The notes under the pieces were generated by a model, which saw only the letters and a list, made by a program, of their open reading frames with translations, was not told the DNA's origin and did not search any database. From assembly GCA_965248265.1 (NCBI GenBank), contig CBDFJF010000001.1:608001-672000 (forward strand): 64,000 nt of DNA. The letters are read 5' to 3'. The position numbers and the translations under genes were made by a program. Positions 2,573 to 62,182 of the stretch are shown here, one piece after another (positions within the stretch are counted from its first letter, which is position 1; each line of letters starts with the position of its first letter). This DNA comes from Candidatus Latescibacterota bacterium (lineage in GTDB: Bacteria; Latescibacterota; UBA2968; UBA8231).

Positions 2573-5251
2573 TTGAGTCAGGAATCGAAACCGGATACCC
2601 ACGAGTACGCGCTGGAAGAGCAGGAGTGGCTGGAGTCTCTGGATTATGTCCTCGCCACCCATCCGGCGGAGCGAGTTCAGCAATTGTTGCGGCAATTGCT
2701 CGACCGCGCCGAACAGACGGGCGTCCAGTTCCCCTTTTCGGCCAACAGGCCTTACGTCAATACGATCAGACGGTCTGAGCAGCCGGCCTTCCCCGGCGAT
2801 CGAGAGATCGAGCGGCGAATCAAGAGCCTGATTCGCTGGAACGCCATGGCGATGGTGGTGCGAGCCAATCGGGATGCCGAGGCGTCTCCTGGAGGGCACA
2901 TTTCAACCTATGCCTCCCTGGCCACCCTCTACGAGGTCGGCTTCAATCACTTCTTCAAAGCCCGCGGCGACGGGCACAGCGGCGATCAGATCTATTTCCA
3001 GGGGCACTCCACCCCGGGGATTTACGCCCGCGCTTTTCTCGAGGGACGGCTGACGGAGCGCCATCTCGAAAACTTCCGGCGCGAACTGCGAGAAGAGGGC
3101 GGTCTGTCATCCTATCCACACCCGTGGTTGATGCCCGATTTCTGGCAATTCCCAACGGTGTCGATGGGGCTGGGACCGATTCTGTCGATCTACCAGGCTC
3201 GTTTCAACAAATACCTGCACGATCGCGACCTGGTGACCACCGATGGTTCGAAGGTATGGGCCTTTTTGGGAGACGGAGAGACCGATGAGCCTGAGGCTCT
3301 GGGTGCCATCAACCTGGCCTCCCGTGAACACCTCGACAATCTGATCTGGGTTATAAACTGCAATCTGCAGCGGCTCGACGGACCAGTCCGCGGCAACAGC
3401 AAGATCATCCAGGAACTCGAGGCGGCCTTCCGGGGCGCTGGCTGGAACGTCATCAAGGTGGTCTGGGGTGACGACTGGGATCCCCTTCTGGAGCGAGACA
3501 GCGAGGGCGCCCTGATGAAGCGCATGGGTGAGGTGGTGGATGGCGAGTACCAGAAATACACCGTCTCCGATGGCGCCTACATCCGCGAGCACTTTTTCGG
3601 CACGGACCCGAGGATGCTCAAGCTGGTCGAGCATCTGACGGACGATCAGCTACAGAAGATGCGCCGCGGCGGACATGATCCGGAGAAGGTCTACTCCGCC
3701 TTCAAGGCCGCGGTGGAAAACAGCGGATCGCCAACAGTCATTCTTGCGAAAACGGTCAAGGGATACGGGTTGGGAGAGGCGGGTGAGGGCAAGAACATTA
3801 CGCATCAACAGAAAAAACTCAACGAGGAAGAACTCGGCGAGTTTCGTTCCCGCTTCGGCATACCGATCTCGGATGACGACGTTGCCGCCGCGCCGTTCTA
3901 CCGCCCTCCAGAAGACAGCCCGGAGATCCGCTACTTGCATGAAAGGCGGGAAGCGCTCGGAGGATACTTGCCCGATCGCAAGGTGCTGGCGCAACCGCTG
4001 AAGACCCCGCCGACCGATTTCTTCGAGGAGTTCAAGGAAGGCTCGGGCGAGCGCGAGATTGCCACGACCATGGCTTTCGCCCGGGTGCTGACGAAGCTGA
4101 TGCGGCACGAGGAGATCGGCAAGCTGATCGTCCCCATCATCCCGGACGAGGCCCGCACCTTTGGCCTGGACGCCCTGTTCAGACCATTCGGCATCTACTC
4201 CCACGCCGGGCAGCTCTACGAGCCGGTGGACCGGGATACCCTGTCCTATTACAAAGAGGCCAAGGACGGGCAGGTTCTCGAGGAAGGCATCACGGAAGCC
4301 GGAGCCATGTCATCGTTCATCGCCGCCGGCACGGCCTACTCGACACACGGCGTCAACACCATCCCGTTTTTCGTCTACTACAGCATGTTCGGCATGCAAC
4401 GCATCGGCGACCAGGTCTGGTTGGCCGGGGACATGCGCTGCCGCGGCTTCATGATCGGAGGCACGGCCGGCCGCACCAGCTTGAGCGGCGAAGGCCTGCA
4501 GCACAACGACGGCAACAGCCATCTGCTGGCCTATCCAGTTCCGAACCTGATGGCCTACGATCTGGCCTTTGCCTACGAAATCGAGGTGGTCATCCGCGAC
4601 GGCATCCGGCGGATGTACGAGGAGCAGGAAAGCATCTTCTATTACCTGACGGTGGAGAACGAGAACTACGTCATGCCACCGATGCCGGAGGGTTGCGAGG
4701 AGGGCATTCTCCGCGGCCTCTATAAGTTCAAGCCGTCGACGAAAAAACGCTCAAAGCTGAAGGCCCATCTGCTGGGCAGCGGTGCCATCGTCAACATGGC
4801 TCTCGAAGCCCAGGATATTCTGGAGGAGCGCTATGGCGTCGCCACCGACGTATGGAGTGTGACCAGCTTCAAGCAACTACATTACGATGGAATCGAATGC
4901 GACCGCTGGAATCGAATGCACCCGGGAGAGGAGCCGCGTGTGCCTCACGTTGCTTTCTGTGTCGGCGGCGAAAAAGGAGTGTTCGTCGTCGCTTCCGACT
5001 ACGTCAAAGCTCTGTCGGAATCGATTGCCCGCTGGTTCCCGAAACCGCCGGTGTCACTGGGCACTGATGGCTTCGGGCGCAGCGAAGGACGTCGCGAGTT
5101 GCGAGATTTCTTCGAGGTCGACGCCCGCTTCATCGTGCTTTCCGCCCTCAGTGCCCTCGCCTCCGAAGACAGCATCGAGGAAAACGTCGTAGTTGACGCC
5201 ATGAAGGACATGGGTATCGACCCGGAAAAGCCCAACCCCGTTATCAGCTGA
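2573..5251 (+). CDS. aceE: Pyruvate dehydrogenase E1 component, homodimeric type
   Basis: 892 aa; GGHIST, YFQGH, SSYPHP, FPTVSMGLGP, GDGETDEPE (ThDP-binding) and GEGLQH motifs. Confidence 0.97.
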   Translation: MSQESKPDTHEYALEEQEWLESLDYVLATHPAERVQQLLRQLLDRAEQTGVQFPFSANRPYVNTIRRSEQPAFPGDREIERRIKSLIRWNAMAMVVRANRDAEASPGGHISTYASLATLYEVGFNHFFKARGDGHSGDQIYFQGHSTPGIYARAFLEGRLTERHLENFRRELREEGGLSSYPHPWLMPDFWQFPTVSMGLGPILSIYQARFNKYLHDRDLVTTDGSKVWAFLGDGETDEPEALGAINLASREHLDNLIWVINCNLQRLDGPVRGNSKIIQELEAAFRGAGWNVIKVVWGDDWDPLLERDSEGALMKRMGEVVDGEYQKYTVSDGAYIREHFFGTDPRMLKLVEHLTDDQLQKMRRGGHDPEKVYSAFKAAVENSGSPTVILAKTVKGYGLGEAGEGKNITHQQKKLNEEELGEFRSRFGIPISDDDVAAAPFYRPPEDSPEIRYLHERREALGGYLPDRKVLAQPLKTPPTDFFEEFKEGSGEREIATTMAFARVLTKLMRHEEIGKLIVPIIPDEARTFGLDALFRPFGIYSHAGQLYEPVDRDTLSYYKEAKDGQVLEEGITEAGAMSSFIAAGTAYSTHGVNTIPFFVYYSMFGMQRIGDQVWLAGDMRCRGFMIGGTAGRTSLSGEGLQHNDGNSHLLAYPVPNLMAYDLAFAYEIEVVIRDGIRRMYEEQESIFYYLTVENENYVMPPMPEGCEEGILRGLYKFKPSTKKRSKLKAHLLGSGAIVNMALEAQDILEERYGVATDVWSVTSFKQLHYDGIECDRWNRMHPGEEPRVPHVAFCVGGEKGVFVVASDYVKALSESIARWFPKPPVSLGTDGFGRSEGRRELRDFFEVDARFIVLSALSALASEDSIEENVVVDAMKDMGIDPEKPNPVIS

Positions 5252-38462: not shown

Positions 38463-38538
38463 GGCCCGTTCGTCTAGAGGCCTAGGACGCCGGCCTCTCA
38501 CGCCGGTAACACGGGTTCGAATCCCGTACGGGCTACCA
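38463..38538 (+). tRNA. tRNA-Glu (anticodon CTC)
   Basis: Acceptor GGCCCGT/ACGGGCT, anticodon arm CCGGC-CTCTCAC-GCCGG, T-loop GGTTCGAATCC, encoded CCA; 76 nt. Confidence 0.97.
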
Positions 38539-39145
38539 ACTGTTGCGACTCATCGAACTTCTGACACGGAGTATCGATGAGCGCGAGACGAATCTTGTCG
38601 GGGGTCCAAACGAGCTGGTTGACGCGGAGCCGAATTAGCTCCCGTCGCTCTTCTGGCAGGGCTTCCCGATAGAGATCATCAAAGGTCGTCAGGGACTCGG
38701 TCAATGACTGGGCACTGACGGCCTTTGCTTTTGTGGCTTGGATTTCGAAGTCAACCGCCAGAGTCTCGTCTTCGAGCTGCTCCTGCCGATCTTCGAGTTC
38801 TACAATCCGTCTGCCAACTGACTTGATCTTTCTCTTGCTGGCGATGCCATCCACGAGAGCTTCAATCTGTTCCTGGATGCTGCGACTCTGGCTCTTCAGC
38901 TCCGTTTTTCGCTTCCTCAGATTCCCAAGCAACTCGTCGGCTCCAGACATAGCCATCTGGACAATCCGTTCGATCGTGCGGTCTTGTTTGCTCAACTGGA
39001 TCAGACGCTCAGCGATGACCTGCTCCAGTGGCTCAGCAGGCAGCGGTTTCGTCTTGCAGGCTTCCGTACCACGGTGGTTCCGGTTGGTGCAAGCGTAGTA
39101 GCTGTACAGCCGCTTCTGTGGGTTGTAGCTGAACGTGGGCGTCAT
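38498..39145 (-). pseudogene. C-terminal remnant of a large serine recombinase (zinc ribbon + coiled coil)
   Basis: YYACTNRNHRGTEAC zinc-ribbon half, coiled coil, EERRELIRLRVNQL; the C-terminus reads through the tRNA 3' half. An in-frame stop lies just upstream of the start and no catalytic domain is visible. Confidence 0.8.
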
Positions 39146-39281
39146 ATAGGCCCCACGGGTGGGGGCGCTTCAATTGATGAAGCACACTCACCGGATAATC
39201 GGTCCTGCGGACGCTTGTACGATGGACCCTGCTGACCAGCCTGACTGCTGACCGGTTGTCGGTGGGAGATGAAACGCCCAT

Positions 39282-41326
39282 GTCGAGTAGCCGAGGCCCT
39301 GTCATGCGGCCCCGGCCCTCACCAGATCCCAGCGAGCAGATTTCCCGCACTGGGCTCCTCCATTGACACGTCTCGCGGTTAGGAAAACCAGATCGATACA
39401 ACGATCCGGGGTCTTGGGAGTGGATACTGCCGGAGCAACCCCCGGTAGTATCGCTCCCACGTCAGGCGCGATCGCTGGCTACGTCGATTCAACCACTTGT
39501 ACCACGCAAACATCGCTGCGGTAGTGAGTTGGGTTACGCTGTTCCCATTCCCGCTGATACCGAAGTAGTTGATGTGGCCTTGGATGCGCCTTACGAGGTC
39601 GGCGTGCTGCTTTGGTATCGGCCAGTTCCGATGGCGACGGCACAGCCGATACAGGGCCTGCACAGACCGCTTGAGCCGATCACGCCGTGTCTTGCTCGTC
39701 AGCACCCATCGACCATTCGGGGCTCTCCGCCAAAACCACGTGAAACCCAGAAGGTCGAAGGTACCTGGCCCTTTACCCTTCGTCTGCTCCTGTGGTGGCC
39801 GCTCGAAAGGGATGAGCCGGGTCTTGTCTGGCTGCAGGGTTAGTCCGTATTTGTCCAGCCGCTTGCTCAGCACTGCCCTCACGCGCTCGGCATCCTCCGG
39901 CAGTTCGAAACCAATGATGAAATCATCGGCGTATCGGACCAACGTTGCTCTACGACGCAACCGTGGTCTGATCTCGACTTCAAACCACTCGTCGAGGACG
40001 TGGTGCAGGTAGAGGTTGCCAAGCAGTGGCGACAAACAGGAGCCCTGTGCGGTGCCTCGGTCCGGCGTAGAAAACTGTTCGCCATCCAGCACCCCAACGT
40101 GCAAGCACTTCCCCACGAGCCGGGTGATCGACCCATCGGGAATCCGCTCCCGGAGAAACTCCATCAGTTTGGATCGATCCAAACTGTCGAAGTAGGATGT
40201 AATATCCGCCTCCAGAATGACCTTCGCTTCCCCGTTCATCACCACCCGATTCAACACCCGCAGAGCGTCGTGGGCACTGCGTCCCGGACGGTAGCCGTAT
40301 GAGCAATCCCGAAAGTCCTGCTCGTAGACCGCCGACAGCACCTCGCGTAACGCCTCCTGGACAATCTTGTCCTCGAAGCACGAGATGCCAATGGGACGAG
40401 TCTTCTTGCCTTTGCCGTCCTTGGGGATGTGGACTCTACGAATGGGCTGGTGGCGCCACCGCTTAGTGCGCAGTCGCCGGTGCAGATCCTGCAGATTCCT
40501 CTCCAGGTCCTGCCCATACTGCTCCTTGGTCACGCCATCTACCCCGACTGCAGCGCTCGGCTTTTGATGGTCGAACGCCCTACGCAGAGCTTCCACGTCG
40601 ATCAGGTGTGCCAGCGAGTGAAACTTGGCCTGCGGCTCTCGCCTCGCTCTCTCCGCTACCTCCAAAAGTCCCGGTGACATGGACCCCGAAGTCAATGCAT
40701 CGGTCATGGTGCCCTCCTGAAGTTCGTGTCAACACGGACCGCCTTGGCTCCGCCGGGTCCAGCTGCCAACCGTTCCCCGACTTCTCAGCTACTACACGGT
40801 CCTCCGACTCCCCATGCTCCATCGGTCGCCGCTCCGGTTCCCCTCGCAAACGACCTACCACGGTGCCCACGCTTGTTCTTAATCGGCCACGCGTGCGTGT
40901 GCTGACGCGTGGCGCGTCGGAGACTTCTTCACCGGCTCTCCGTAGCACCGGAATCAATCCGTGGAGAGGCTGGGGCCTCCCAGGTTCCTGGGTCATCCTC
41001 TGCGAGCGTGCCCTGGTCGTATCACACCCCGCCGGGGTGTCGTCGCCTTGCCCACATAACGCCGACGACACTGCTGCCTTCAGGTAATCCGGCACCCTCA
41101 GCTATCCCGGAACGGTCTCATTTCAGGGCCGCAATCCCACAGCCCGCTCGCTCACTGCCCTACTGCTTCGCCTGCCCCGTTACCGGGAACACACGCAAGG
41201 GCTCGTTTCTGGCCTGCCGGGCTCAGCTTTGGCCAGGCGGGTTTTGCACCCGCGGGACGACTAACCGTATTTCAAGAAAGTATCACCTCCTTCTATTCCT
41301 ACGGACCAGACTTGCCTGGTCGCATC
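39282..41326 (-). mobile_element. Group II intron, copy 1 (2045 nt)
   Basis: Minus strand begins GATGCGACCAGGCAAG and ends with domain V (GAGCCCAGTGCGGGAAATCTGCTCGCTGGGATC) and domain VI ...GGCTACTCGAC. Boundaries come from comparison with copy 2; the 5' end is uncertain by 1 nt. Confidence 0.93.
39379..40707 (-). CDS. ltrA: Group II intron reverse transcriptase/maturase without an endonuclease domain
   Basis: RPIGI, YGYRPGRSAHDA, QGSCLSPLLGNLYL, RYADD, FDLLGF, X domain; RBS AGGAGG. Confidence 0.95.
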   Translation of the reverse strand: MTDALTSGSMSPGLLEVAERARREPQAKFHSLAHLIDVEALRRAFDHQKPSAAVGVDGVTKEQYGQDLERNLQDLHRRLRTKRWRHQPIRRVHIPKDGKGKKTRPIGISCFEDKIVQEALREVLSAVYEQDFRDCSYGYRPGRSAHDALRVLNRVVMNGEAKVILEADITSYFDSLDRSKLMEFLRERIPDGSITRLVGKCLHVGVLDGEQFSTPDRGTAQGSCLSPLLGNLYLHHVLDEWFEVEIRPRLRRRATLVRYADDFIIGFELPEDAERVRAVLSKRLDKYGLTLQPDKTRLIPFERPPQEQTKGKGPGTFDLLGFTWFWRRAPNGRWVLTSKTRRDRLKRSVQALYRLCRRHRNWPIPKQHADLVRRIQGHINYFGISGNGNSVTQLTTAAMFAWYKWLNRRSQRSRLTWERYYRGLLRQYPLPRPRIVVSIWFS

Positions 41327-41474
41327 CGGACCCTGAATCTGATTCCCTAGCTGAGGTCTCGACCTACCCTTGCCACTGTTGTCGGCTGCATCCTACTCTC
41401 TTGACCACTAAGAGCGAAGCCAACAGGGTGCCCCTTCCCACTGCGGTGCAATGGATCTTCCAGAGGGAAACTGA

Positions 41475-42551
41475 GTGAGTGATCGCCCTTCGTTGAACGA
41501 GCTGGATCCAGACCTCGTTCAGGGAGCATTTCGAGAGTCAGTTGGCGATGCCAGGCTACTCGATTGGAGCCAAGCGCCGATCCAGGTAGGATCGGTGGGC
41601 GAGTTGTACCGTGTCAGCGGTAGAGTCCAATTGAATACAGGCACCGCAACGGCTTGCTCCCTCGTGCTCAAGATCCAACGCAGATGGGAACGTCGTGGTG
41701 ATCCCGAATGCTGGAGGCGGGAGGCTCTGGTGTATCGATCGGGAATCTTCGACGAGCTCCCCGAATCGCTCCGAGTCCCTATATGTTACAGCATCCAGGA
41801 GCGTGAAGACGAGACGTGGTACTGGTTCGAAGAGGTCACTGGCACGACAGCAGGCCAGTTTGACCTGGACCACTACTGTCAGGCAGCGCACCATCTTGGC
41901 CAGTTTCAAGGGCCCTACATCGCTGGCCGACCCCTGCCAACCTACCCGTGGCTCAGTTCACGCAGGTGGATTACCCATACGGTGTCCAACTGGGGAACGG
42001 GCGCAATCCCTTGGCTCAATTCTTCTGACAGCTCATCCCTGACCAACTCAGTTCGAGAGCAGGCAATGACGATCTGGGCGGAGCGTGATGGATTCCTTGA
42101 TGTCGTTGATGATTTGCCCAGAACGGTGTGCCATCGTGACTTCAATCCAGAGAATCTCTTCCTCCCCGAGGCACTGTCCGGTGCAAATACCACGGTCATA
42201 GACTGGGATTGTGTCGGAATCGGCGCTCTCGCCGAGGACATAGGTGATCTCGTGGGAGAAGCTCTCGTATTTCAAGAATGGGATATTTCTCGTGCGTTGG
42301 ATCTGAAGGAGCAAGTGCTGGCGGCGTACCACGAAGGGCTTGTCGAATCGGGCTCTAAGGTGAGCCCTGAGACCGTACAACTGGGTTTTGCGACAGTATC
42401 TCCGCTACAGTGGTGCTTTAGGTTGATATGCCGCTATAAGGACGCGGAGGACCCCGCAACCCGAGAGCGTTATGTGGCCATCCTTCAGTTCATGCTGGAA
42501 CTGGGACGCGATGCACGTCGGTTGGCTTCGTCGCGGCCGAACCGCGGATGA
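41475..42551 (+). CDS. Aminoglycoside phosphotransferase-like kinase
   Basis: LVLKI, HRDFNPENL and IDWD motifs. Confidence 0.85.
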   Translation: MSDRPSLNELDPDLVQGAFRESVGDARLLDWSQAPIQVGSVGELYRVSGRVQLNTGTATACSLVLKIQRRWERRGDPECWRREALVYRSGIFDELPESLRVPICYSIQEREDETWYWFEEVTGTTAGQFDLDHYCQAAHHLGQFQGPYIAGRPLPTYPWLSSRRWITHTVSNWGTGAIPWLNSSDSSSLTNSVREQAMTIWAERDGFLDVVDDLPRTVCHRDFNPENLFLPEALSGANTTVIDWDCVGIGALAEDIGDLVGEALVFQEWDISRALDLKEQVLAAYHEGLVESGSKVSPETVQLGFATVSPLQWCFRLICRYKDAEDPATRERYVAILQFMLELGRDARRLASSRPNRG

Positions 42552-42565
42552 CCAATCCGATTTAC
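42539..42565 (+). repeat. Degenerate 27-bp island site (weak), overlapping the stop of the phosphotransferase gene
   Basis: gaaccgcg-gatgaccaatc-cgatttac; inner CGGAT/ATCCG palindrome with the correct spacing. Confidence 0.35.
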
Positions 42566-42694
42566 CTATCCCACCCAGCGGATCCTCCTCGACCGTGGTG
42601 CCAAGATAGCCAACCTGTATCTTCTCTCGTGACAACCAAACCGGATCCTCTGGCCATGTCGATGTTGGTCCTGCTCACGTATGGAGGAGTTCAC

Positions 42695-43948
42695 GTGAAG
42701 ACACCACTGCTCACAGCGTTGGTGCTGGCATCCGCGTTGATCCTGCCTGGCAGCTCGACAGCGGCGAATGCAACGGACTACACGTTCGTACTGCTGGATC
42801 AAGCAATCTACCGCGGCGGAATGGCGCATGTGAATGCCGCCGGACAGGTTGCCCTCTCAACAATTGACCGAGAAAACAATCCCCAGGCGTGTCGGTGGTC
42901 AATCACTGAGAAAGAAGCTCTGTCTCTGGGGACCTTGGCGTCTCACGATCCGCGCTCACTCGCCAAAGCGATCAATGACCGTGGACACATAGTTGGGACT
43001 GTGCATGAGGAGGAAAACAACCTCGTCCATGCATTCTATTGGACTCCCACCAGCGGCATGCGGCGACTCCCTTCGTTTGGTGGATCCCAGACTGTACCAG
43101 TTGATATCAACGACCGGGATCAGGTCGTCGGCCAGTCAATAAATGCAGATGGCCTGGAGCGAGCTTTCCTGTGGACCGCCGATAACGGAATCAGAGACCT
43201 TGGCTCATTGGTGGAAGAAACCGAGAAGACGAGATCACTCACCAAACAGGACTCCGCCAACATCGGCACCGTGGCGACAGAACTGGGAGAGCCCGTTTTG
43301 AGTCCCGGCGGCAAGGTTTTTAAACAAGCGGTGATATCCTCCGTACTGAGAAGGCAGAGCGAGGCTGGGGCTGTGAACGAACAGGGTTGGGTGGTCGGCA
43401 CCTCGAGAGCCATCGATGGCCTTGATCATCCCTTTCTCTGGAAGCCGGAGACCGGGATGATCGATCTGGGAATACTGCCAGGCTATGTCGGAGGGGCGCC
43501 CACCGGTATCAACAACCGGGGACAAGTCCCCGTTGTCCTGTTCAAGCGCCAACCTTTCAAGCGTCGCTCCTGGTTCCTGGGATCCCCGTTCCTGTGGGCG
43601 GACGACGAAGGCCTCGAGCCATTGCCATCGCCGCCTGGTTTCAATGACATCCGGCCAATAGCGATCAACAACAGCGGCGACATTCTGCTCTGGGCACGGA
43701 AGATACCGGAAGGAGAGCCCACGAATAAATCGATCGAATTCACCGGCTTCCTCCTGTCTGGCGACGGATTGTCCGAGTTGCCACAGTTGGAGGGCGCAGA
43801 CCTCACTAAATATTCGGGCATCAACGACAGAGGACACCTTGTCGGGAGTGCTACGAACTGTGAGTTCGACACTGATGGTGAGGTTGTCAGCAGGTCCGCA
43901 AGAGTCTTCGTTGCGGTACCCACCGGCTCGCGTGCAAGCATCGAATGA
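42695..43948 (+). CDS. Secreted HAF-repeat (extracellular repeat) protein
   Basis: GTG start after GGAGG, signal peptide, repeats INDRGHIVG/HAFYW/DLG. Confidence 0.85.
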   Translation: MKTPLLTALVLASALILPGSSTAANATDYTFVLLDQAIYRGGMAHVNAAGQVALSTIDRENNPQACRWSITEKEALSLGTLASHDPRSLAKAINDRGHIVGTVHEEENNLVHAFYWTPTSGMRRLPSFGGSQTVPVDINDRDQVVGQSINADGLERAFLWTADNGIRDLGSLVEETEKTRSLTKQDSANIGTVATELGEPVLSPGGKVFKQAVISSVLRRQSEAGAVNEQGWVVGTSRAIDGLDHPFLWKPETGMIDLGILPGYVGGAPTGINNRGQVPVVLFKRQPFKRRSWFLGSPFLWADDEGLEPLPSPPGFNDIRPIAINNSGDILLWARKIPEGEPTNKSIEFTGFLLSGDGLSELPQLEGADLTKYSGINDRGHLVGSATNCEFDTDGEVVSRSARVFVAVPTGSRASIE

Positions 43949-43961
43949 TTTGGCTGTTCGT

Positions 43962-43988
43962 GCCCATCGTTTGCCCACTCCGATGGGC
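43962..43988 (+). repeat. 27-bp island site (perfect 8-bp arms)
   Basis: gcccatcg-tttgcccactc-cgatgggc, 13 nt after a stop codon. Confidence 0.8.
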
Positions 43989-44063
43989 GGATTTGCTTGC
44001 GATCGTATGAGACTCTCACCGATCTTTCACACATAGATTGTTCATCTAAGCGAAGGAGATGTC

Positions 44064-44318
44064 ATGACTATGTATCGGCTATTTGACGACCTGCTGAGCG
44101 CAAGTGACGCCAAGATTGCAGATCTTTTGCACGAATCCACTGAAGAAGACTGCGTGCTCGCTCTTTCCGGAGCGTCCGCTGTGATGAGAGCCAGATTCCT
44201 TCAGCAGATGGCTCCGCCGCTCCGGACCCACATGGTTGAGCGCATTAACCAGAATATCGTGCCCAGTGACTCGAAGGCCGCTCAATCAAGAATATTGGAT
44301 ATAGCCCGGCAGCCCTGA
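44064..44318 (+). CDS. Stand-alone FliG C-terminal-like domain protein
   Basis: FDDLL...LALSGAS...RFLQQM...AAQSRILDIARQ matches the FliG_C pattern; RBS AAGGAG. Confidence 0.7.
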   Translation: MTMYRLFDDLLSASDAKIADLLHESTEEDCVLALSGASAVMRARFLQQMAPPLRTHMVERINQNIVPSDSKAAQSRILDIARQP

Positions 44319-44334
44319 GTCGACCTGTACGGCC

Positions 44335-44361
44335 TGACCTCGTCCAGACAATCCGATGGTC
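44335..44361 (+). repeat. 27-bp island site
   Basis: tgacctcg-tccagacaatc-cgatggtc (left arm is gaccatcg minus one A). Confidence 0.65.
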
Positions 44362-44446
44362 GGCTGGCCAAGCAACCGAGATGAGACAGCGACGTCAAAT
44401 AAGGTGGATTCCCACCTGACTCTGAATCCCTGGACAGCGCACGTAT

Positions 44447-44884
44447 ATGAAAATTCGCCTGGTCGATTTTCTTAGGGGCTTCTCCCGAACGCCACTGCGT
44501 GGTGGCATTCTGATGCTAGCCGTCACGATATGTCTGATTCTGGCGTTCGGTGGCACATTCGCCATTGCCATTTTCGGGCCCGAAGTCGCTCAGTCCGTAC
44601 TTAAGCCCTGGGTCGTCATTCTCTTGTTTGGCATCCTTGCCCCTGCTGTTTGGGCCAGAATCGCTGCAGCATTGCCGCCACAGTTCTCATTGCCACAGAT
44701 TTTGTTTGTCTTCTGCATCGGCGTCCTGCCGGTGCTGCTTGGAACGCTGTATCAGTACTATTTGCTGGCGACAGTTGGTCCGGAAGGATGTCACGGTGGG
44801 AACATCGCCGGGTTGTTTCTCGGTACTCTGGCTGTGATTGGCGCCGCTGGATCAATGGTGGTGGGATCAATTTTTCGTCGGTAG
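44447..44884 (+). CDS. Hypothetical four-TM membrane protein
   Basis: Four hydrophobic segments; bounded by island sites. Confidence 0.65.
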   Translation: MKIRLVDFLRGFSRTPLRGGILMLAVTICLILAFGGTFAIAIFGPEVAQSVLKPWVVILLFGILAPAVWARIAAALPPQFSLPQILFVFCIGVLPVLLGTLYQYYLLATVGPEGCHGGNIAGLFLGTLAVIGAAGSMVVGSIFRR

Positions 44885-44891
44885 CTCCGCC

Positions 44892-44918
44892 GCCCGTCGT
44901 TCAGGTAATGCGATGGGC
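44892..44918 (+). repeat. 27-bp island site
   Basis: gcccgtcg-ttcaggtaatg-cgatgggc, 7 nt after a stop codon. Confidence 0.8.
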
Positions 44919-45021
44919 GTTAGAGCATCAGAGCCTTCACTTCCTCTTGTGAGTATGTTCTGGCACAGACACGGAGGTGGATGCAAACGACTGCCAAAAC
45001 CGCTCCAAGGAGGACCGATCC

Positions 45022-45303
45022 GTGAATTACATACCTGTTGAACTCTGGCGCATCTTCATAGGTATTGGTGTTGTCGTCATGATTCGCGGATTCCTTTTCT
45101 TGCGAGAACCAACAGTGGGGTCGGCGGAGATCGCAGGCAGTCTCATCTGGGTTTTCATCGCTGCCATCACGTTCATGGTAGCCTACCGCGCGAAGAACGC
45201 TGGGAGTGAAGCGGAGCCTTTACGTTTCATAATCATGGTGTCCGCCGTGGCCGGTCTGAGTACGATAGCCACTGCGTTTTGGCTGTTGATGACGAAAGGG
45301 TGA
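45022..45303 (+). CDS. Hypothetical three-TM membrane protein
   Basis: GTG after AGGAGG; three hydrophobic segments. Confidence 0.6.
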   Translation: MNYIPVELWRIFIGIGVVVMIRGFLFLREPTVGSAEIAGSLIWVFIAAITFMVAYRAKNAGSEAEPLRFIIMVSAVAGLSTIATAFWLLMTKG

Positions 45304-45407
45304 GCGTCCCGCTCCTCCGTTCCTTCCCGTCTCGCATACCATCGCCAGCCTGTCGCCCTTCGTTTCAGCGCCGGTTCAGCCTGGCGAGGTAGCGACCCTG
45401 GTGTACC

Positions 45408-45434
45408 GGGCATCACCTTCACAATCCGCAGGGC
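45408..45434 (+). repeat. Degenerate 27-bp island site
   Basis: gggcatca-ccttcacaatc-cgcagggc. Confidence 0.5.
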
Positions 45435-45683
45435 GCTGGTACTGAGGACGGCGGCGCATGGCATATGCGGACGTCACGGAATACCCCGTATTACCCCGCT
45501 ATCTGGATGCAGGTGAAGATCCCTGGCCTGCTTGAGCGGGCCCATCAAGCAGGCTATCCTTCTCGGCAAGATCGCGATACGAGGAGTGATTCCCATGACG
45601 GCATCTGGCGCCAGCCCGCCTCGCGGGACCCACGGGAAGGATGATGCACACTTCCACATAATCGATATGTTGTGTCAGAAAAC

Positions 45684-46967
45684 ATGAGAACTGCCACAAT
45701 AGCCATCATCGGTGCGGGATCTAGAGGCACCACATACGCCGGCTACGCGCTTGCGCATCCTGAACTGGTCAAAGTCATCGCTGTAGCTGAACCGCGTGAT
45801 GCATGGCGTACACGCCTGATGAAGGCACACGGGATTGCCGAGTCGGAGGCCACAACCGACTGGCGCGACCTTTTGGATCGCCCGCGATGTGCGGATGCCG
45901 TCGTGATCGCAACCCAGGACGCCATGCACGTGGAACCGGCTGTGGCCGCGGCACATAAGGGGTACGCCATTCTGCTGGAGAAACCGATGGCCCCGAATGC
46001 AGATGATTGCCGCAAGATTGTCGCTGCTCTTGATGAGCATACGCCATTCGCGGTCTGTCATGTTCTCCGGTACACACGTCACACCCAGAAGATCAAGGAG
46101 TTGATCAATGCGGGCGTGATAGGAGATGTGGTGAATGTGCAATCCCTCGAGCCGGTAGGCTACTGGCACCAGGCGCATTCCTTTGTGCGCGGCAATTGGC
46201 GTTGCGAGGCGACATCGTCTCCCATGCTGCTCGCGAAGTGCTGCCATGATCTGGATTGGATTCAATACATCATGGGCAACAGATGCACTTCTATTCAGTC
46301 CTTTGGCACATTGAAGCACTTCCGGGGCGACCAAAAACCATCCGGAGCAACAGCCAGGTGCTTGGACTGCCCGCATGAATCTTCCTGCCCGTACTCGGCC
46401 AAAAAGATCTACCTCTCGCGCGGCGTGGCGCAAGGTCATCTGGGATGGCCTGTCAATGTTCTCGCTCCGGAGCCGAACGAAGCAAGCGTTCTAGAAGCAC
46501 TGCGCTCCGGACCTTACGGGAGGTGCGTGTATGACTGCGACAACGATGTCGTCGATAATCAAGTCGTCAACATGCTATTTGAGGGCGGAACGACCGCCAC
46601 CCTCACGATGACTGCGTTCACCGAATTCAGCGACCGCCAGACGCGCATCTTTGGAACACGAGGCCAGCTCGTCAGCGATGGCAAAGTGATTCGACATTTC
46701 GACTTCCTGACTGACAGATGGGAAGAGATTCAGACAGAATCGGGTGACCATTCGATCCTTGGCGGCCATGGCGGGGGAGACAACGCTCTCATGGAGGCGT
46801 TCACGAATGCCGTGCGCCACAATAACCGCAACCGGATCTTGTCCGGACCAGAGGAATCCCTGGAAACACACATGATGGTGTTTGCGGCGGAGCAGTCTCG
46901 CCGTGAGGGCCGGGTCGTCAAGATGGAGGAAATGCAAACACAACCAAGCCATGTAGGCGATGATTGA
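45684..46967 (+). CDS. Gfo/Idh/MocA family oxidoreductase
   Basis: IIGAGSRG, LLEKPMA, KCCHDLD, GHGGGD. Confidence 0.92.
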   Translation: MRTATIAIIGAGSRGTTYAGYALAHPELVKVIAVAEPRDAWRTRLMKAHGIAESEATTDWRDLLDRPRCADAVVIATQDAMHVEPAVAAAHKGYAILLEKPMAPNADDCRKIVAALDEHTPFAVCHVLRYTRHTQKIKELINAGVIGDVVNVQSLEPVGYWHQAHSFVRGNWRCEATSSPMLLAKCCHDLDWIQYIMGNRCTSIQSFGTLKHFRGDQKPSGATARCLDCPHESSCPYSAKKIYLSRGVAQGHLGWPVNVLAPEPNEASVLEALRSGPYGRCVYDCDNDVVDNQVVNMLFEGGTTATLTMTAFTEFSDRQTRIFGTRGQLVSDGKVIRHFDFLTDRWEEIQTESGDHSILGGHGGGDNALMEAFTNAVRHNNRNRILSGPEESLETHMMVFAAEQSRREGRVVKMEEMQTQPSHVGDD

Positions 46968-47013
46968 CACGGCGGCCCATGGAAACGCTGTCTCAAGATG
47001 CACGATTGCCCAT

Positions 47014-49058
47014 GTCGAGTAGCCGAGGCCCTGTCATGCGGCCCCGGCCCTCACCAGATCCCAGCGAGCAGATTTCCCGCACTGGGCTCCTCCATTGACA
47101 CGTCTCGCGGTTAGGAAAACCAGATCGATACAACGATCCGGGGTCTTGGGAGTGGATACTGCCGGAGCAACCCCCGGTAGTATCGCTCCCACGTCAGGCG
47201 CGATCGCTGGCTACGTCGATTCAACCACTTGTACCACGCAAACATCGCTGCGGTAGTGAGTTGGGTTACGCTGTTCCCATTCCCGCTGATACCGAAGTAG
47301 TTGATGTGGCCTTGGATGCGCCTTACGAGGTCGGCGTGCTGCTTTGGTATCGGCCAGTTCCGATGGCGACGGCACAGCCGATACAGGGCCTGCACAGACC
47401 GCTTGAGCCGATCACGCCGTGTCTTGCTCGTCAGCACCCATCGACCATTCGGGGCTCTCCGCCAAAACCACGTGAAACCCAGAAGGTCGAAGGTACCTGG
47501 CCCTTTACCCTTCGTCTGCTCCTGTGGTGGCCGCTCGAAAGGGATGAGCCGGGTCTTGTCTGGCTGCAGGGTTAGTCCGTATTTGTCCAGCCGCTTGCTC
47601 AGCACTGCCCTCACGCGCTCGGCATCCTCCGGCAGTTCGAAACCAATGATGAAATCATCGGCGTATCGGACCAACGTTGCTCTACGACGCAACCGTGGTC
47701 TGATCTCGACTTCAAACCACTCGTCGAGGACGTGGTGCAGGTAGAGGTTGCCAAGCAGTGGCGACAAACAGGAGCCCTGTGCGGTGCCTCGGTCCGGCGT
47801 AGAAAACTGTTCGCCATCCAGCACCCCAACGTGCAAGCACTTCCCCACGAGCCGGGTGATCGACCCATCGGGAATCCGCTCCCGGAGAAACTCCATCAGT
47901 TTGGATCGATCCAAACTGTCGAAGTAGGATGTAATATCCGCCTCCAGAATGACCTTCGCTTCCCCGTTCATCACCACCCGATTCAACACCCGCAGAGCGT
48001 CGTGGGCACTGCGTCCCGGACGGTAGCCGTATGAGCAATCCCGAAAGTCCTGCTCGTAGACCGCCGACAGCACCTCGCGTAACGCCTCCTGGACAATCTT
48101 GTCCTCGAAGCACGAGATGCCAATGGGACGAGTCTTCTTGCCTTTGCCGTCCTTGGGGATGTGGACTCTACGAATGGGCTGGTGGCGCCACCGCTTAGTG
48201 CGCAGTCGCCGGTGCAGATCCTGCAGATTCCTCTCCAGGTCCTGCCCATACTGCTCCTTGGTCACGCCATCTACCCCGACTGCAGCGCTCGGCTTTTGAT
48301 GGTCGAACGCCCTACGCAGAGCTTCCACGTCGATCAGGTGTGCCAGCGAGTGAAACTTGGCCTGCGGCTCTCGCCTCGCTCTCTCCGCTACCTCCAAAAG
48401 TCCCGGTGACATGGACCCCGAAGTCAATGCATCGGTCATGGTGCCCTCCTGAAGTTCGTGTCAACACGGACCGCCTTGGCTCCGCCGGGTCCAGCTGCCA
48501 ACCGTTCCCCGACTTCTCAGCTACTACACGGTCCTCCGACTCCCCATGCTCCATCGGTCGCCGCTCCGGTTCCCCTCGCAAACGACCTACCACGGTGCCC
48601 ACGCTTGTTCTTAATCGGCCACGCGTGCGTGTGCTGACGCGTGGCGCGTCGGAGACTTCTTCACCGGCTCTCCGTAGCACCGGAATCAATCCGTGGAGAG
48701 GCTGGGGCCTCCCAGGTTCCTGGGTCATCCTCTGCGAGCGTGCCCTGGTCGTATCACACCCCGCCGGGGTGTCGTCGCCTTGCCCACATAACGCCGACGA
48801 CACTGCTGCCTTCAGGTAATCCGGCACCCTCAGCTATCCCGGAACGGTCTCATTTCAGGGCCGCAATCCCACAGCCCGCTCGCTCACTGCCCTACTGCTT
48901 CGCCTGCCCCGTTACCGGGAACACACGCAAGGGCTCGTTTCTGGCCTGCCGGGCTCAGCTTTGGCCAGGCGGGTTTTGCACCCGCGGGACGACTAACCGT
49001 ATTTCAAGAAAGTATCACCTCCTTCTATTCCTACGGACCAGACTTGCCTGGTCGCATC
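47014..49058 (-). mobile_element. Group II intron, copy 2 (apparently identical to copy 1)
   Basis: Same sequence offset by 7732 nt; all internal ORF translations match copy 1. Confidence 0.93.
47111..48439 (-). CDS. ltrA: Group II intron reverse transcriptase/maturase
   Basis: Identical 442-aa translation to 39379-40707. Confidence 0.95.
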   Translation of the reverse strand: MTDALTSGSMSPGLLEVAERARREPQAKFHSLAHLIDVEALRRAFDHQKPSAAVGVDGVTKEQYGQDLERNLQDLHRRLRTKRWRHQPIRRVHIPKDGKGKKTRPIGISCFEDKIVQEALREVLSAVYEQDFRDCSYGYRPGRSAHDALRVLNRVVMNGEAKVILEADITSYFDSLDRSKLMEFLRERIPDGSITRLVGKCLHVGVLDGEQFSTPDRGTAQGSCLSPLLGNLYLHHVLDEWFEVEIRPRLRRRATLVRYADDFIIGFELPEDAERVRAVLSKRLDKYGLTLQPDKTRLIPFERPPQEQTKGKGPGTFDLLGFTWFWRRAPNGRWVLTSKTRRDRLKRSVQALYRLCRRHRNWPIPKQHADLVRRIQGHINYFGISGNGNSVTQLTTAAMFAWYKWLNRRSQRSRLTWERYYRGLLRQYPLPRPRIVVSIWFS

Positions 49059-49149
49059 CGGACACAGAGTCCGATGGTCGGTACCATTCCCTGATGTCCT
49101 CGCGTTCTCGCCGGCGAGCATGTTGGACTGCAATAACCCGGGTTGAGAC

Positions 49150-50355
49150 CTATTTCGTTTCCGCCAGTGCGTCTTCAAGCAACGACACCGGGTAGCACAG
49201 GTAGATCTCCAGATCCTGGCGTCCATCACACGACACTTTCATGACCAGGTGGATTACAGGTGTTCCTCCTGAGTGCGGCTCAATGAAACACGGCTCGGTC
49301 TCAAGCTCAATGTCAACGACGGTCATTTCGCGCACTGGCCGCCATGCTGCTTCCAGTGCCGAGATCATTTCCTTTGCCATGTTGGTGAAAGTCTGCCTCT
49401 CTTCTTGAGTCACCCGGTCCTCTGCAGGACCGAATACGGTCGATTCAATCCAGGACTCACCGAGGGGAGTAGCGAGCCAAGCCTGCGCCAGGGTGTTGAT
49501 GGCTTCGTCGTCAGCGTCTGGCTTCAGGAGTGCGGCACACAGGGGTAGAGAAAGGTCCAGACAGACGCGACCCTCCATCGGCTTCATAGTGAAACAGTAG
49601 TCGCAGCAGAACTTGCCCAGCGACTGAACGTAGTACCCGAACATCCACTCGTGGGCTTCACAGATCTCGACCTCCGCATCCCGTCCCAGCGCCTTGGAAA
49701 ACAGCACCTGCAGCCCTGGCAGTAAACCTTTGTGCAGCTTCTCGGCCGCCTGCAGGTTGCTCTGCACTTGATCGGCAAACTTCTGGTCCTTTGACGGGCG
49801 CTGATCCTGCATGGTCTGACGTGCCATATTGACGAACTCCTTCTTGAGCCGTTTTCTGGCGTTGTGGAGACGGTAGTTGACTGTGGAAACAGGTATTTCC
49901 AGGAAAGCAGCCACTTCCTTCTGTGAAAATTCGCTGATGTAGAAGAGATGAATCACCATGCGCTCCTGCTCTGGCAGCGACTGGAGCACGGCTTGCACAT
50001 GTTCCTTCGTGTCTCTCGATTCCAGAATCTCGCCCGGTCCCCTGTCCTTTGACCGCAGTTGCCCTGCCGCCTCTAGCGACACGAACTCCACGTGTTTCTT
50101 GCGTGTCAGCCGGTCGCAGAACTTGAAGACGATCTTGCGCAACCAGCCTGGAAACGCGTGCGGTCCGTACACACTGGAGAGGTTGAGGAAGGCCTCTGTG
50201 AATGCCTCCTGCGCGATGTCCTCGGCCAAGTGAGGATCCCTCAGGATGGCATTGGCGTAGCCCACGACCATATCCTGAAAGCGTCGGACGATCTCGCCGT
50301 ACGCCTCAACGTCTCCGTTCTGCGCTCTGATCAGGAGCGCCTCTAACTCTTCCAC
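49150..50355 (-). CDS. ECF sigma factor fused to a FliM middle-domain-like C-terminal extension
   Basis: Region 2 (AEDIAQEAF, FPGWLRKI) and region 4 (STVNYRLHNARKRL); C-terminus MKPMEGR...LEAAWRPV...LETEP...YLCYPVSLLE resembles FliM. Confidence 0.8.
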   Translation of the reverse strand: MEELEALLIRAQNGDVEAYGEIVRRFQDMVVGYANAILRDPHLAEDIAQEAFTEAFLNLSSVYGPHAFPGWLRKIVFKFCDRLTRKKHVEFVSLEAAGQLRSKDRGPGEILESRDTKEHVQAVLQSLPEQERMVIHLFYISEFSQKEVAAFLEIPVSTVNYRLHNARKRLKKEFVNMARQTMQDQRPSKDQKFADQVQSNLQAAEKLHKGLLPGLQVLFSKALGRDAEVEICEAHEWMFGYYVQSLGKFCCDYCFTMKPMEGRVCLDLSLPLCAALLKPDADDEAINTLAQAWLATPLGESWIESTVFGPAEDRVTQEERQTFTNMAKEMISALEAAWRPVREMTVVDIELETEPCFIEPHSGGTPVIHLVMKVSCDGRQDLEIYLCYPVSLLEDALAETK

Positions 50356-50570: not shown

Positions 50571-50597
50571 AGCCGTCGTTGACAGAGTCCGATTACC
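50571..50597 (+). repeat. 27-bp island site
   Basis: agccgtcg-ttgacagagtc-cgattacc; shares ACAGAGTCCGAT with the intron-2 target. Confidence 0.65.
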
Positions 50598-51642: not shown

Positions 51643-51669
51643 GTCCGTCACCGACAGCATCCGACGGGC
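51643..51669 (+). repeat. 27-bp island site
   Basis: gtccgtca-ccgacagcatc-cgacgggc. Confidence 0.75.
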
Positions 51670-56724: not shown

Positions 56725-56751
56725 GCCCGTCAGATCCTATATCTGATGCCC
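56725..56751 (+). repeat. 27-bp island site
   Basis: gcccgtca-gatcctatatc-tgatgccc; inner TCAGAT/ATCTGA palindrome. Confidence 0.75.
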
Positions 56752-62155: not shown

Positions 62156-62182
62156 GAGCATCGGATCCATACTGCGATGGTC
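62156..62182 (-). repeat. 27-bp island site, reverse orientation
   Basis: Minus strand gaccatcg-cagtatggatc-cgatgctc, overlapping the stop of a minus-strand gene. Confidence 0.75.

Follow-up and report, generated by a model that had tools for sequence, protein, structure and literature searches.

Group II introns of the IIC-attC type use the bottom strand of integron attC sites as a recurrent safe target. RmInt1, a class D intron with an endonuclease-free protein, reportedly homes into the repeated element ISRm2011-2 with a bias towards the lagging-strand template, and is said to have relatives with altered target recognition. The section on target choice of a 2015 review distinguishes three strategies among bacterial group II introns, namely homing sites, terminators and attC sites, and assigns the last two to class C introns only (PMC4424553). 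Here we analyse a stretch of 64,000 nucleotides (hereafter the window; G000:C1:608001-672000) from the genome of a Candidatus Latescibacterota bacterium (label G000; assembly GCA_965248265.1; 7.32 Mb, 59.6% GC, completeness 92%), which comprises two contigs, C1 (CBDFJF010000001.1) and C2. The window holds two copies of a group II intron inserted in members of a family of 27-bp sites. Our analysis makes it likely, with a probability of roughly 80%, that this is an active intron without an endonuclease domain which retrohomes into the site family by base pairing.

Six intron copies and a shared insertion bond

Window positions 39276-41331 and 47008-49063 are identical and comprise the intron together with six common bases on one side and five on the other, which bears out a preliminary description, made from the window alone, of two identical minus-strand introns at the same bond. 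Copy A (39282-41326) and copy B (47014-49058), both on the minus strand, are 2045 nt long. A BLAST search found six copies in the genome, all full-length, which form two sublineages, v1 and v2. Copies E (C2, 3.89 Mb) and F (C2, 0.78 Mb) belong to v1 together with A and B; A, B and E are identical across 2045 nt and F differs at one base. Sublineage v2 consists of copies C (C1, 696-698 kb) and D (C1, 725-727 kb), which are identical to each other and share 89.6% identity with v1. The sites of A and B had been thought to be the only two of their kind; copy E on C2, the third v1 copy in the same site subtype, shows otherwise.

Site positions 1-27 and junctions are given in intron sense. In copies A and B an intron running GATGCG...CTCGAC lies between a 5' exon ending in GTCCG and a 3' exon starting with ATGGGC; the same intron ends are flanked by GTCCG and ACGGGC in copy E and by ATCCG and ATCTTC in copy F. 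In copies C and D the intron (GATGCG...CTCAAC) follows CAACG and precedes ATGGTC (C) or ATGCCC (D). All six 3' exons begin with A. These ends are set by four uninterrupted paralogues, one of the 5' flank of copy C (C1 ~868.2 kb) and three of the 3' flank of copy D (C1 ~680.4 kb, C1 ~876.9 kb and C2 ~3920.2 kb), all colinear with a spacer of 11 nt, not 12, and all without the extra G. The G before AUGCG therefore belongs to the intron, which starts GAUGCG, and the boundaries first proposed for A and B are exact. Two other public runs (X5 and X6) contain a 5473-nt contig that follows the left flank of copy B, at about 97% identity, up to exactly 47013, the base that immediately precedes the intron; its next 3.8 kb are sequence other than the intron.

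The sites so reconstructed belong to a family with the consensus G[AC]CCATCG-N11-CGAYGG[GT]C, a 27-bp imperfect palindrome with 8-bp arms. We scored sites in bits with a weight matrix that was made only with uninterrupted sites and then rebuilt once, and counted those of at least 14 bits. There are 57 in C1 640-1020 kb, eight in C2 3880-3930 kb and 16 in the other 6.89 Mb, such that 65 of the 81 fall within 430 kb. The motif is real and abundant, as had been supposed, although regionally. Arm matches of 15-16 out of 16 are seen solely at a spacer length of 11. Site A (positions 22-27 at 39276-39281 and positions 1-21 at 41327-41347, minus strand) has a degenerate left arm, and the last five nucleotides of its 5' exon part form the intron-binding site 1 (IBS1). 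Site B (47008-47013 and 49059-49079, minus strand) closes into a 9-bp stem with a 5-nt loop; excision of either intron gives the site sequence reported before. The reconstructed sites score 35.1 (B), 31.8 (E), 17.9 (A), 13.5 (C), 0.8 (D) and -15.4 (F) bits.

Five of the six copies split a family site between positions 21 and 22 (CG|AYGG), far beyond chance, and the claim that the intron recurrently uses a repeated site different from attC thus holds. The words at the junctions are themselves common: the genome has 7951 occurrences of [AG]TCCG|A and 5818 of CAACG|A, of which four and seven, respectively, lie in register in unoccupied family sites. As such short words are frequent, yet five of six copies lie in the family, something beyond a 6-nt word must guide the introns to it.

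One loop of domain I differs between the sublineages, reading GCCGGAUUAC in v1 and GCCGUUGUAC in v2. The v1 loop (41085-41093 in A and 48817-48825 in B, minus strand) pairs with RUCCG and the v2 loop with (UA)CAACG, the respective 5' exon ends. Pairing of this loop with the 5' exon extends to 15 of the 16 relatives that were scored. Because it changes in step with the 5' exons, and because relatives pair likewise, we identify this loop as exon-binding site 1 (EBS1), the element that the preliminary description had proposed to look for. The pairing takes in the last three spacer bases and the CG of the right arm, and EBS1 is 5-8 bp long. With CCGGAU in one sublineage and CCGUUG in the other, EBS1 has been altered to suit the spacer endings RUCCG and CAACG, respectively, from which it follows that the lineage tracks the family and not a single locus.

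The remaining intron parts are those of a complete ribozyme and its protein. Domains I to IV match RF02005 on the minus strand in both window copies (100.7 bits, cut-off 49; full model, 1-225; 41017-41246 in copy A). Domains V and VI match RF00029 (39.8 bits, cut-off 40; E 8e-6) at 39282-39359, with a terminus at exactly 39282. Domain V (39322-39359, minus strand), delimited by RF00029 and folding, has a 5-nt terminal loop, GAAAU, and a 2-nt bulge; domain VI (39282-39323, minus strand) has a single bulged A 7 nt before the 3' end, the intron terminating in AC, and folds with a z-score of -3.6. The RNA outside the open reading frame (ORF) amounts to 716 nt. The ORF encodes a reverse transcriptase (RT)/maturase of 442 residues with a YADD motif (39379-40707 in copy A, minus strand; TIGR04416, 309.7 bits, cut-off 300), is likewise intact in copy B (47111-48439, minus strand) and, with its YADD motif, in all six copies; 406 of the 442 residues are the same in the v1 and v2 proteins. 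Pfam detects the RT domain (RVT_1) alone, with no HNH or other endonuclease domain in the intron ORF, and the protein thus lacks an endonuclease domain, as was suspected. From the identity of the copies and the intact ORFs we infer current mobility and splicing.

Target recognition and rival explanations

By GC skew, replication starts near C1 2.95 Mb and terminates near C2 3.45 Mb, which makes the minus strand the leading one at copies A to E and the plus strand the leading one at F. All six sense strands thus lie on the leading-strand side, that is, on the lagging-strand template. A replication-fork route is described for introns with endonuclease-free proteins in the same part of the 2015 review (PMC4424553). 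In the retrohoming that we propose, the EBS1 loop pairs with IBS1, formed by the spacer end and the CG, and insertion is always after site position 21. The intron would reverse splice into the lagging-strand template at replication forks, where nascent DNA would act as primer. Recognition would be mostly by sequence, through IBS1 and the bases that begin the 3' exon, perhaps together with a few further positions. Since the sites are multi-copy and mostly intergenic, the family may serve the intron as a safe haven.

A number of observations weigh against this proposal. Copy F lies outside the family (-15.4 bits) and shares only the short IBS1 with the others, a relation found in this one copy of the six. 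Site D scores just 0.8 bits and is assigned to the family by paralogy, being colinear with three family sites; its low score comes from the matrix, into which its spacer type was entered in reverse orientation. Compatible family sites stay empty, including one at C1 ~868.2 kb that matches the occupied v2 sites over 11+3 nt. A search for an EBS2 partner, and for a determinant beyond the 6-8 paired bases, found neither. The same strain yielded no empty allele; in the source sample, contigs end at the borders of the intron, and a joint that skips the intron is absent among the matches listed. In addition, GC skew is near zero within the site array, and the RF00029 score falls 0.2 bits short of the gathering score.

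Among the rival explanations, the one that survives best is structure-dependent recognition of the IIC-attC kind, in which the site is folded as a hairpin in single-stranded DNA, the stem-loop replaces IBS2, and the family is regularly extruded. Sites B and E indeed form stems of 9-11 bp around the same 5-nt loop, the EBS2 partner is not evident, EBS2 is dispensable for self-splicing of IIE and IIF introns in the section consulted of one study (PMC3753933), two relatives lie within strong inverted repeats (L006, z -6.4; L030 from Sorangium, z -4.35), and all copies are on the lagging-strand template. However, only B and E among the reconstructed sites have negative z-scores of any size (-1.29 and -2.64); A (0.69), C (-0.13) and D (0.27) do no better than shuffles, and F, which has no hairpin, stands at 2.4. 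Likewise, the single-stranded DNA folds of unoccupied sites beat shuffled sequences in two of five cases. Over 53 sites, 305 of 424 arm pairs (72%) are Watson-Crick and 61 are plain mismatches, uncompensated; G.T and A.C pairs are equally frequent (29 each) and so point to neither strand as the one that folds. The pattern resembles a pair of drifting half-sites for a protein more than it does a conserved hairpin, although the sites may still fold, and it does not support the exposure of the sites as single-stranded DNA that had been suggested at the outset. Nine of 12 relatives are not in significant hairpins; a lineage-wide preference for hairpins was rejected, z being below -2 in only three of the 12. 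Because F sits in a non-hairpin site and the left arm of A is degenerate, the hairpin form is probably not needed for insertion, and we regard structure-dependent recognition as unlikely.

Much less probable still is that the copies are not independent, a single intron-bearing site having been multiplied through duplication or through site-specific cassette recombination. Homology blocks in this region do end within sites, sites B and E have arms and spacer in common, and copies C and D are preceded by the same 11 nt and followed by the same 3 nt. Against this, the 400-bp flanks on both sides are unrelated among A, B, E and F and between C and D, from which it follows that the copies are independent insertions. 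Furthermore, A is unlike B and E in its spacer and left arm, F is outside the family, the intron copies are ~100% identical as against 75-90% for the cassette paralogues, and the X5/X6 contig that departs at 47013 is one hint that the locus of site B is empty in a relative.

The placement of the 5' end bears on a last alternative. GAUGCG departs from GUGYG, the 5'-end criterion for mobile group II introns. Among 20 relatives the base before GUGCG varies, and starts other than GUGCG (GAAGCG, GUUGCG, GAUGCG) always have a G one base upstream (9/9). A 6-nt GNNGCG start is found in nine of 20 related RF02005 introns (L023-L069, L006), with a C or U of the loop facing the first G. That the intron instead starts AUGCG, with an exonic G and with rare 12-nt-spacer variants as targets in place of ordinary family members, would accord with the alignment of the A of AUGCG to the G of GUGCG in relatives and with the ability of the EBS1 loop to pair with the disputed G as well, but is very improbable, as the G is missing from all four uninterrupted paralogues, site scores collapse once it is added (B from 35.1 to 6.0, E from 31.8 to 5.9, A from 17.9 to -11.2 bits), no strong family site has a 12-nt spacer, and in all nine relatives with a non-G second base the preceding base is G and the loop places C or U opposite it, as it does opposite G1 in the GUGCG types.

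The site array and its surroundings

The spacers of the family fall into about a dozen recurring types, with AAC/GTT boxes in some types only. Counts of exact CCATCG-N-CGATGG by spacer showed no enrichment, and the family emerged only with degenerate arms and the weight matrix. On a crude ORF map, 35 of the 57 sites of the main array are intergenic, six lie over an ORF end and 16 within a predicted ORF. A CACAAG box upstream is tied to one spacer type and present in only eight of 65 sites. A weak matrix match in the anticodon arm of a tRNA (C1 2.258 Mb) raised the possibility of tRNA mimicry, which was rejected as the loop positions misfit.

In the window the array begins just past a tRNA-Glu(CUC) gene (38463-38538, plus strand), with no sites upstream of it and ten downstream, counting the two occupied ones. 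Window sites lie 8-48 nt past the stop codons of plus-strand ORFs, and the preceding ORFs are functionally unrelated: APH-family kinase, DUF3466, FliG_C-like, GFO/IDH/MocA oxidoreductase, GNAT acetyltransferase and metallophosphoesterase. Between copies A and B, on the minus strand, there are unoccupied sites at 43962-43988 (30.2 bits; 14 nt past the stop of ORF 42548-43948; single-stranded DNA fold -9.0 kcal/mol, z -2.05) and 44892-44918 (31.6 bits; 8 nt past the stop of ORF 44447-44884), and weak ones at 44335-44361 (15.4 bits) and 45408-45434 (12.6 bits). Beyond copy B, further unoccupied sites follow at 50571-50597 (minus strand, 14.7 bits), which carries the v2-type word CAACG|A, 51643-51669 (minus strand, 20.0 bits), 56725-56751 (of another spacer type, 15.2 bits; plus strand, orientation uncertain) and 62156-62182 (minus strand, 27.9 bits), with the v1-type word ATCCG|A.

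Homology blocks of paralogous gene units end within sites, at positions 14-24, in four pairs. Window 44892-44917 equals C1:705995-706020, that is, 26 of the 27 bases of the site at 44892-44918, with unrelated flanks, and window 43604-43983 resembles C1:704824-705202. A pair of successive site variants is thus found again, in unchanged order, at a distance of 53 kb, with unrelated sequence of ~0.8-0.9 kb between them in the two places, as if a cassette had been swapped. The genome also encodes four small tyrosine recombinase paralogues (80-83% amino acid identity), two inside the array (C1:685700-686638 and C1:703263-704105), one 8 kb from the small array (C2:3930247-3931098) and one 12-27 kb from two isolated sites (C2:3033502-3034371), besides a fragment at C1:731070-731342. 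A ParB-HTH (helix-turn-helix) protein of 143-145 residues precedes both recombinases examined, and homologues of 36-59% identity occur in seven of 40 related genomes.

These features provide a lead, rather than a finding, towards a role of the 27-bp sites in recombination. In its boldest form, the sites would be the recombination sites of a new integron-like platform run by ParB-HTH and tyrosine-recombinase modules in place of IntI, and an intron of IIE/IIF type would have converged on the niche of IIC-attC introns, its EBS1 following the site subtypes; we consider this doubtful. Gene orientation around the sites is mixed, one homology block is tied to the opposite side of its site, and no sites were found that consistently adjoin the recombinase genes, all of which count against a simple integron-like picture. 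No integron integrase scores above the cut-off in the genome: the best TIGR02249 match (138 bits, cut-off 265; 138+101 bits in two parts) lies at C1 1.754 Mb, far from the array, and misses model positions 178-232. The sites were also considered as a repetitive extragenic palindromic (REP) element mobilised by a REP-associated tyrosine transposase (RAYT) and rejected as such, the 92% complete genome having no match to PF01797 and the sites being regional, not genome-wide.

Directly after the tRNA-Glu gene, a minus-strand ORF (within 38463-39145) has a recombinase zinc-ribbon domain only (PF13408, E 1.7e-5) and probably represents what is left of a large serine recombinase. A search for a partial tRNA-Glu repeat that would mark the far end of the region found none. 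Near copy B, 49150-50355 (minus strand) encodes an extracytoplasmic function (ECF) sigma factor of PF07638 type fused to a FliM-like C-terminal region; it ends 92 nt upstream of the intron on the same strand, so that copy B could be transcribed by read-through. Elsewhere in the genome, a 300-nt stretch at C2:1820430-1820729 with 68% identity to the intron 3' end (query 1718-2018) may be a fragment of another group II intron.

We also looked for the sites outside this genome. The exact pattern shows no clear enrichment in 40 related genomes. One of these (G011) has a comparable palindrome-like word of 23 nt in four copies (C17:24218, C137:51815, C145:22243 and C145:29465), all with one spacer; it may be a cousin of the family. 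A metagenome scan for type-1/2 sites yielded no empty copy of B or E among 80 of 100 stretches. These 80, of which 63 have a 5-nt gap and 17 a 4-nt gap, are mostly chance or coding matches or one unrelated sediment repeat, and they therefore provide no evidence on homology. The repeat in question, on freshwater-sediment contigs (L086-L165, for example L089, L093 and L112), is present in many ~60-nt copies with a constant right side and a variable left flank; it fits the search pattern with a 12-nt spacer by chance and is probably unrelated.

Relatives and comparison with known systems

Related RT loci (n=47) come from Gemmatimonadota, Acidobacteriota, delta- and gammaproteobacteria and Sorangium cellulosum So ce56, and RF02005 matches were found in 19 of 20 of the loci scanned. 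None of the 12 relatives with both ends mapped has the 27-bp motif at its insertion site, and specialisation on the site family is therefore local to the intron lineage of this genome. Some relatives show peculiarities of their own. The 17 nt on the 5' side of four Sorangium introns (L029, L030, L031 and L044) are the same and recur as their reverse complement 60-190 nt downstream, so that these introns sit in a repeated inverted-repeat element; L006 (1440-1560 and 3530-3580) sits in the loop of an inverted repeat with a 17-bp stem; and the domain V region of L025 and L034 is interrupted by another ribozyme match (RF02003, 52.8 bits; 4382-4561 and 4046-4225, respectively), which looks like a nested intron.

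The intron is not of class C: its best family is RF02005, its RNA outside the ORF is 716 nt, EBS1 extends over 5-8 bp and the domain V loop has 5 nt. An affinity to class E had been proposed, and the missing endonuclease domain, the IIB-like ribozyme and the 5-nt domain V loop agree with it. However, in the portion consulted of PMC3753933 a 5-nt domain V loop and a IIB-like RNA are common to IIE and IIF, and the nearest named relatives are the introns of So ce56 (62-65% RT identity). The 716 nt of non-ORF RNA and the domain V loop fit IIE or IIF alike, and the ribozyme is best described as IIB-like, of IIE/IIF type. Sg.ce.I1, possibly one of these So ce56 introns, is placed in group g2 of the former class F (PMC3552965). 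The So ce56 introns and other RF02005 introns resemble the present one in ribozyme family and in the position of the EBS1 loop, and differ in having other target sequences and mostly a GUGCG start, as opposed to GAUGCG here.

Retrohoming into a repeated element is already known; what is new lies in the class of intron and its target, in a 5' end of 6 nt and in the paired split of EBS1 and site subtype. A literature search within one collection of papers returned nothing on the 27-bp site family or on a full-length non-IIC intron specialised on such a site. An intron outside class C that targets a repeated short palindromic site is an independent, second example of introns that live on a repeated site family. 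Moreover, two sublineages that have re-tuned EBS1 to site subtypes constitute a natural experiment in retargeting, and a swap of the EBS1 loop gives a direct, testable prediction on target choice. The finding also draws attention to the site family itself, with its about 65 sites in two regions at the ends of gene blocks.

As in IIC-attC introns such as S.ma.I2, the protein is endonuclease-free, the target is a recurrent imperfect palindrome that follows gene units at their 3' end, a single fixed bond is used for insertion and the many target copies may act as a safe haven; the intron also lies on the strand opposite most neighbouring genes, in the arm that adjoins the stop codon of the upstream gene. 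In contrast to these introns, the ribozyme here belongs to RF02005, the domain V loop has 5 nt, EBS1 spans 5-8 bp instead of 3-4, the target is only 27 bp long, no integrase was found in the genome, and the hairpin is dispensable in one copy. With RmInt1 the present intron shares sequence-directed homing into a multi-copy element and orientation on the lagging-strand template. Unlike RmInt1, it uses an intergenic 27-bp family with about a dozen spacer types and not a transposase gene, and two EBS1 variants address two subtypes at one bond. Also comparable in setting are the 5'-truncated class E IIB intron fragments described, in the part of the report that concerns it, from a cluster of attC sites lacking integron-integrases (CALIN) of Halorhodospira halochloris (PMC7923331). 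There, too, according to that part, a non-IIC endonuclease-free intron lies by attC-like palindromes in a genome with no integron integrase; those fragments, however, are truncated and accompany canonical attC sites called by IntegronFinder, whereas the intron described here is present as six intact copies, inserted at an exact bond of a much shorter site.

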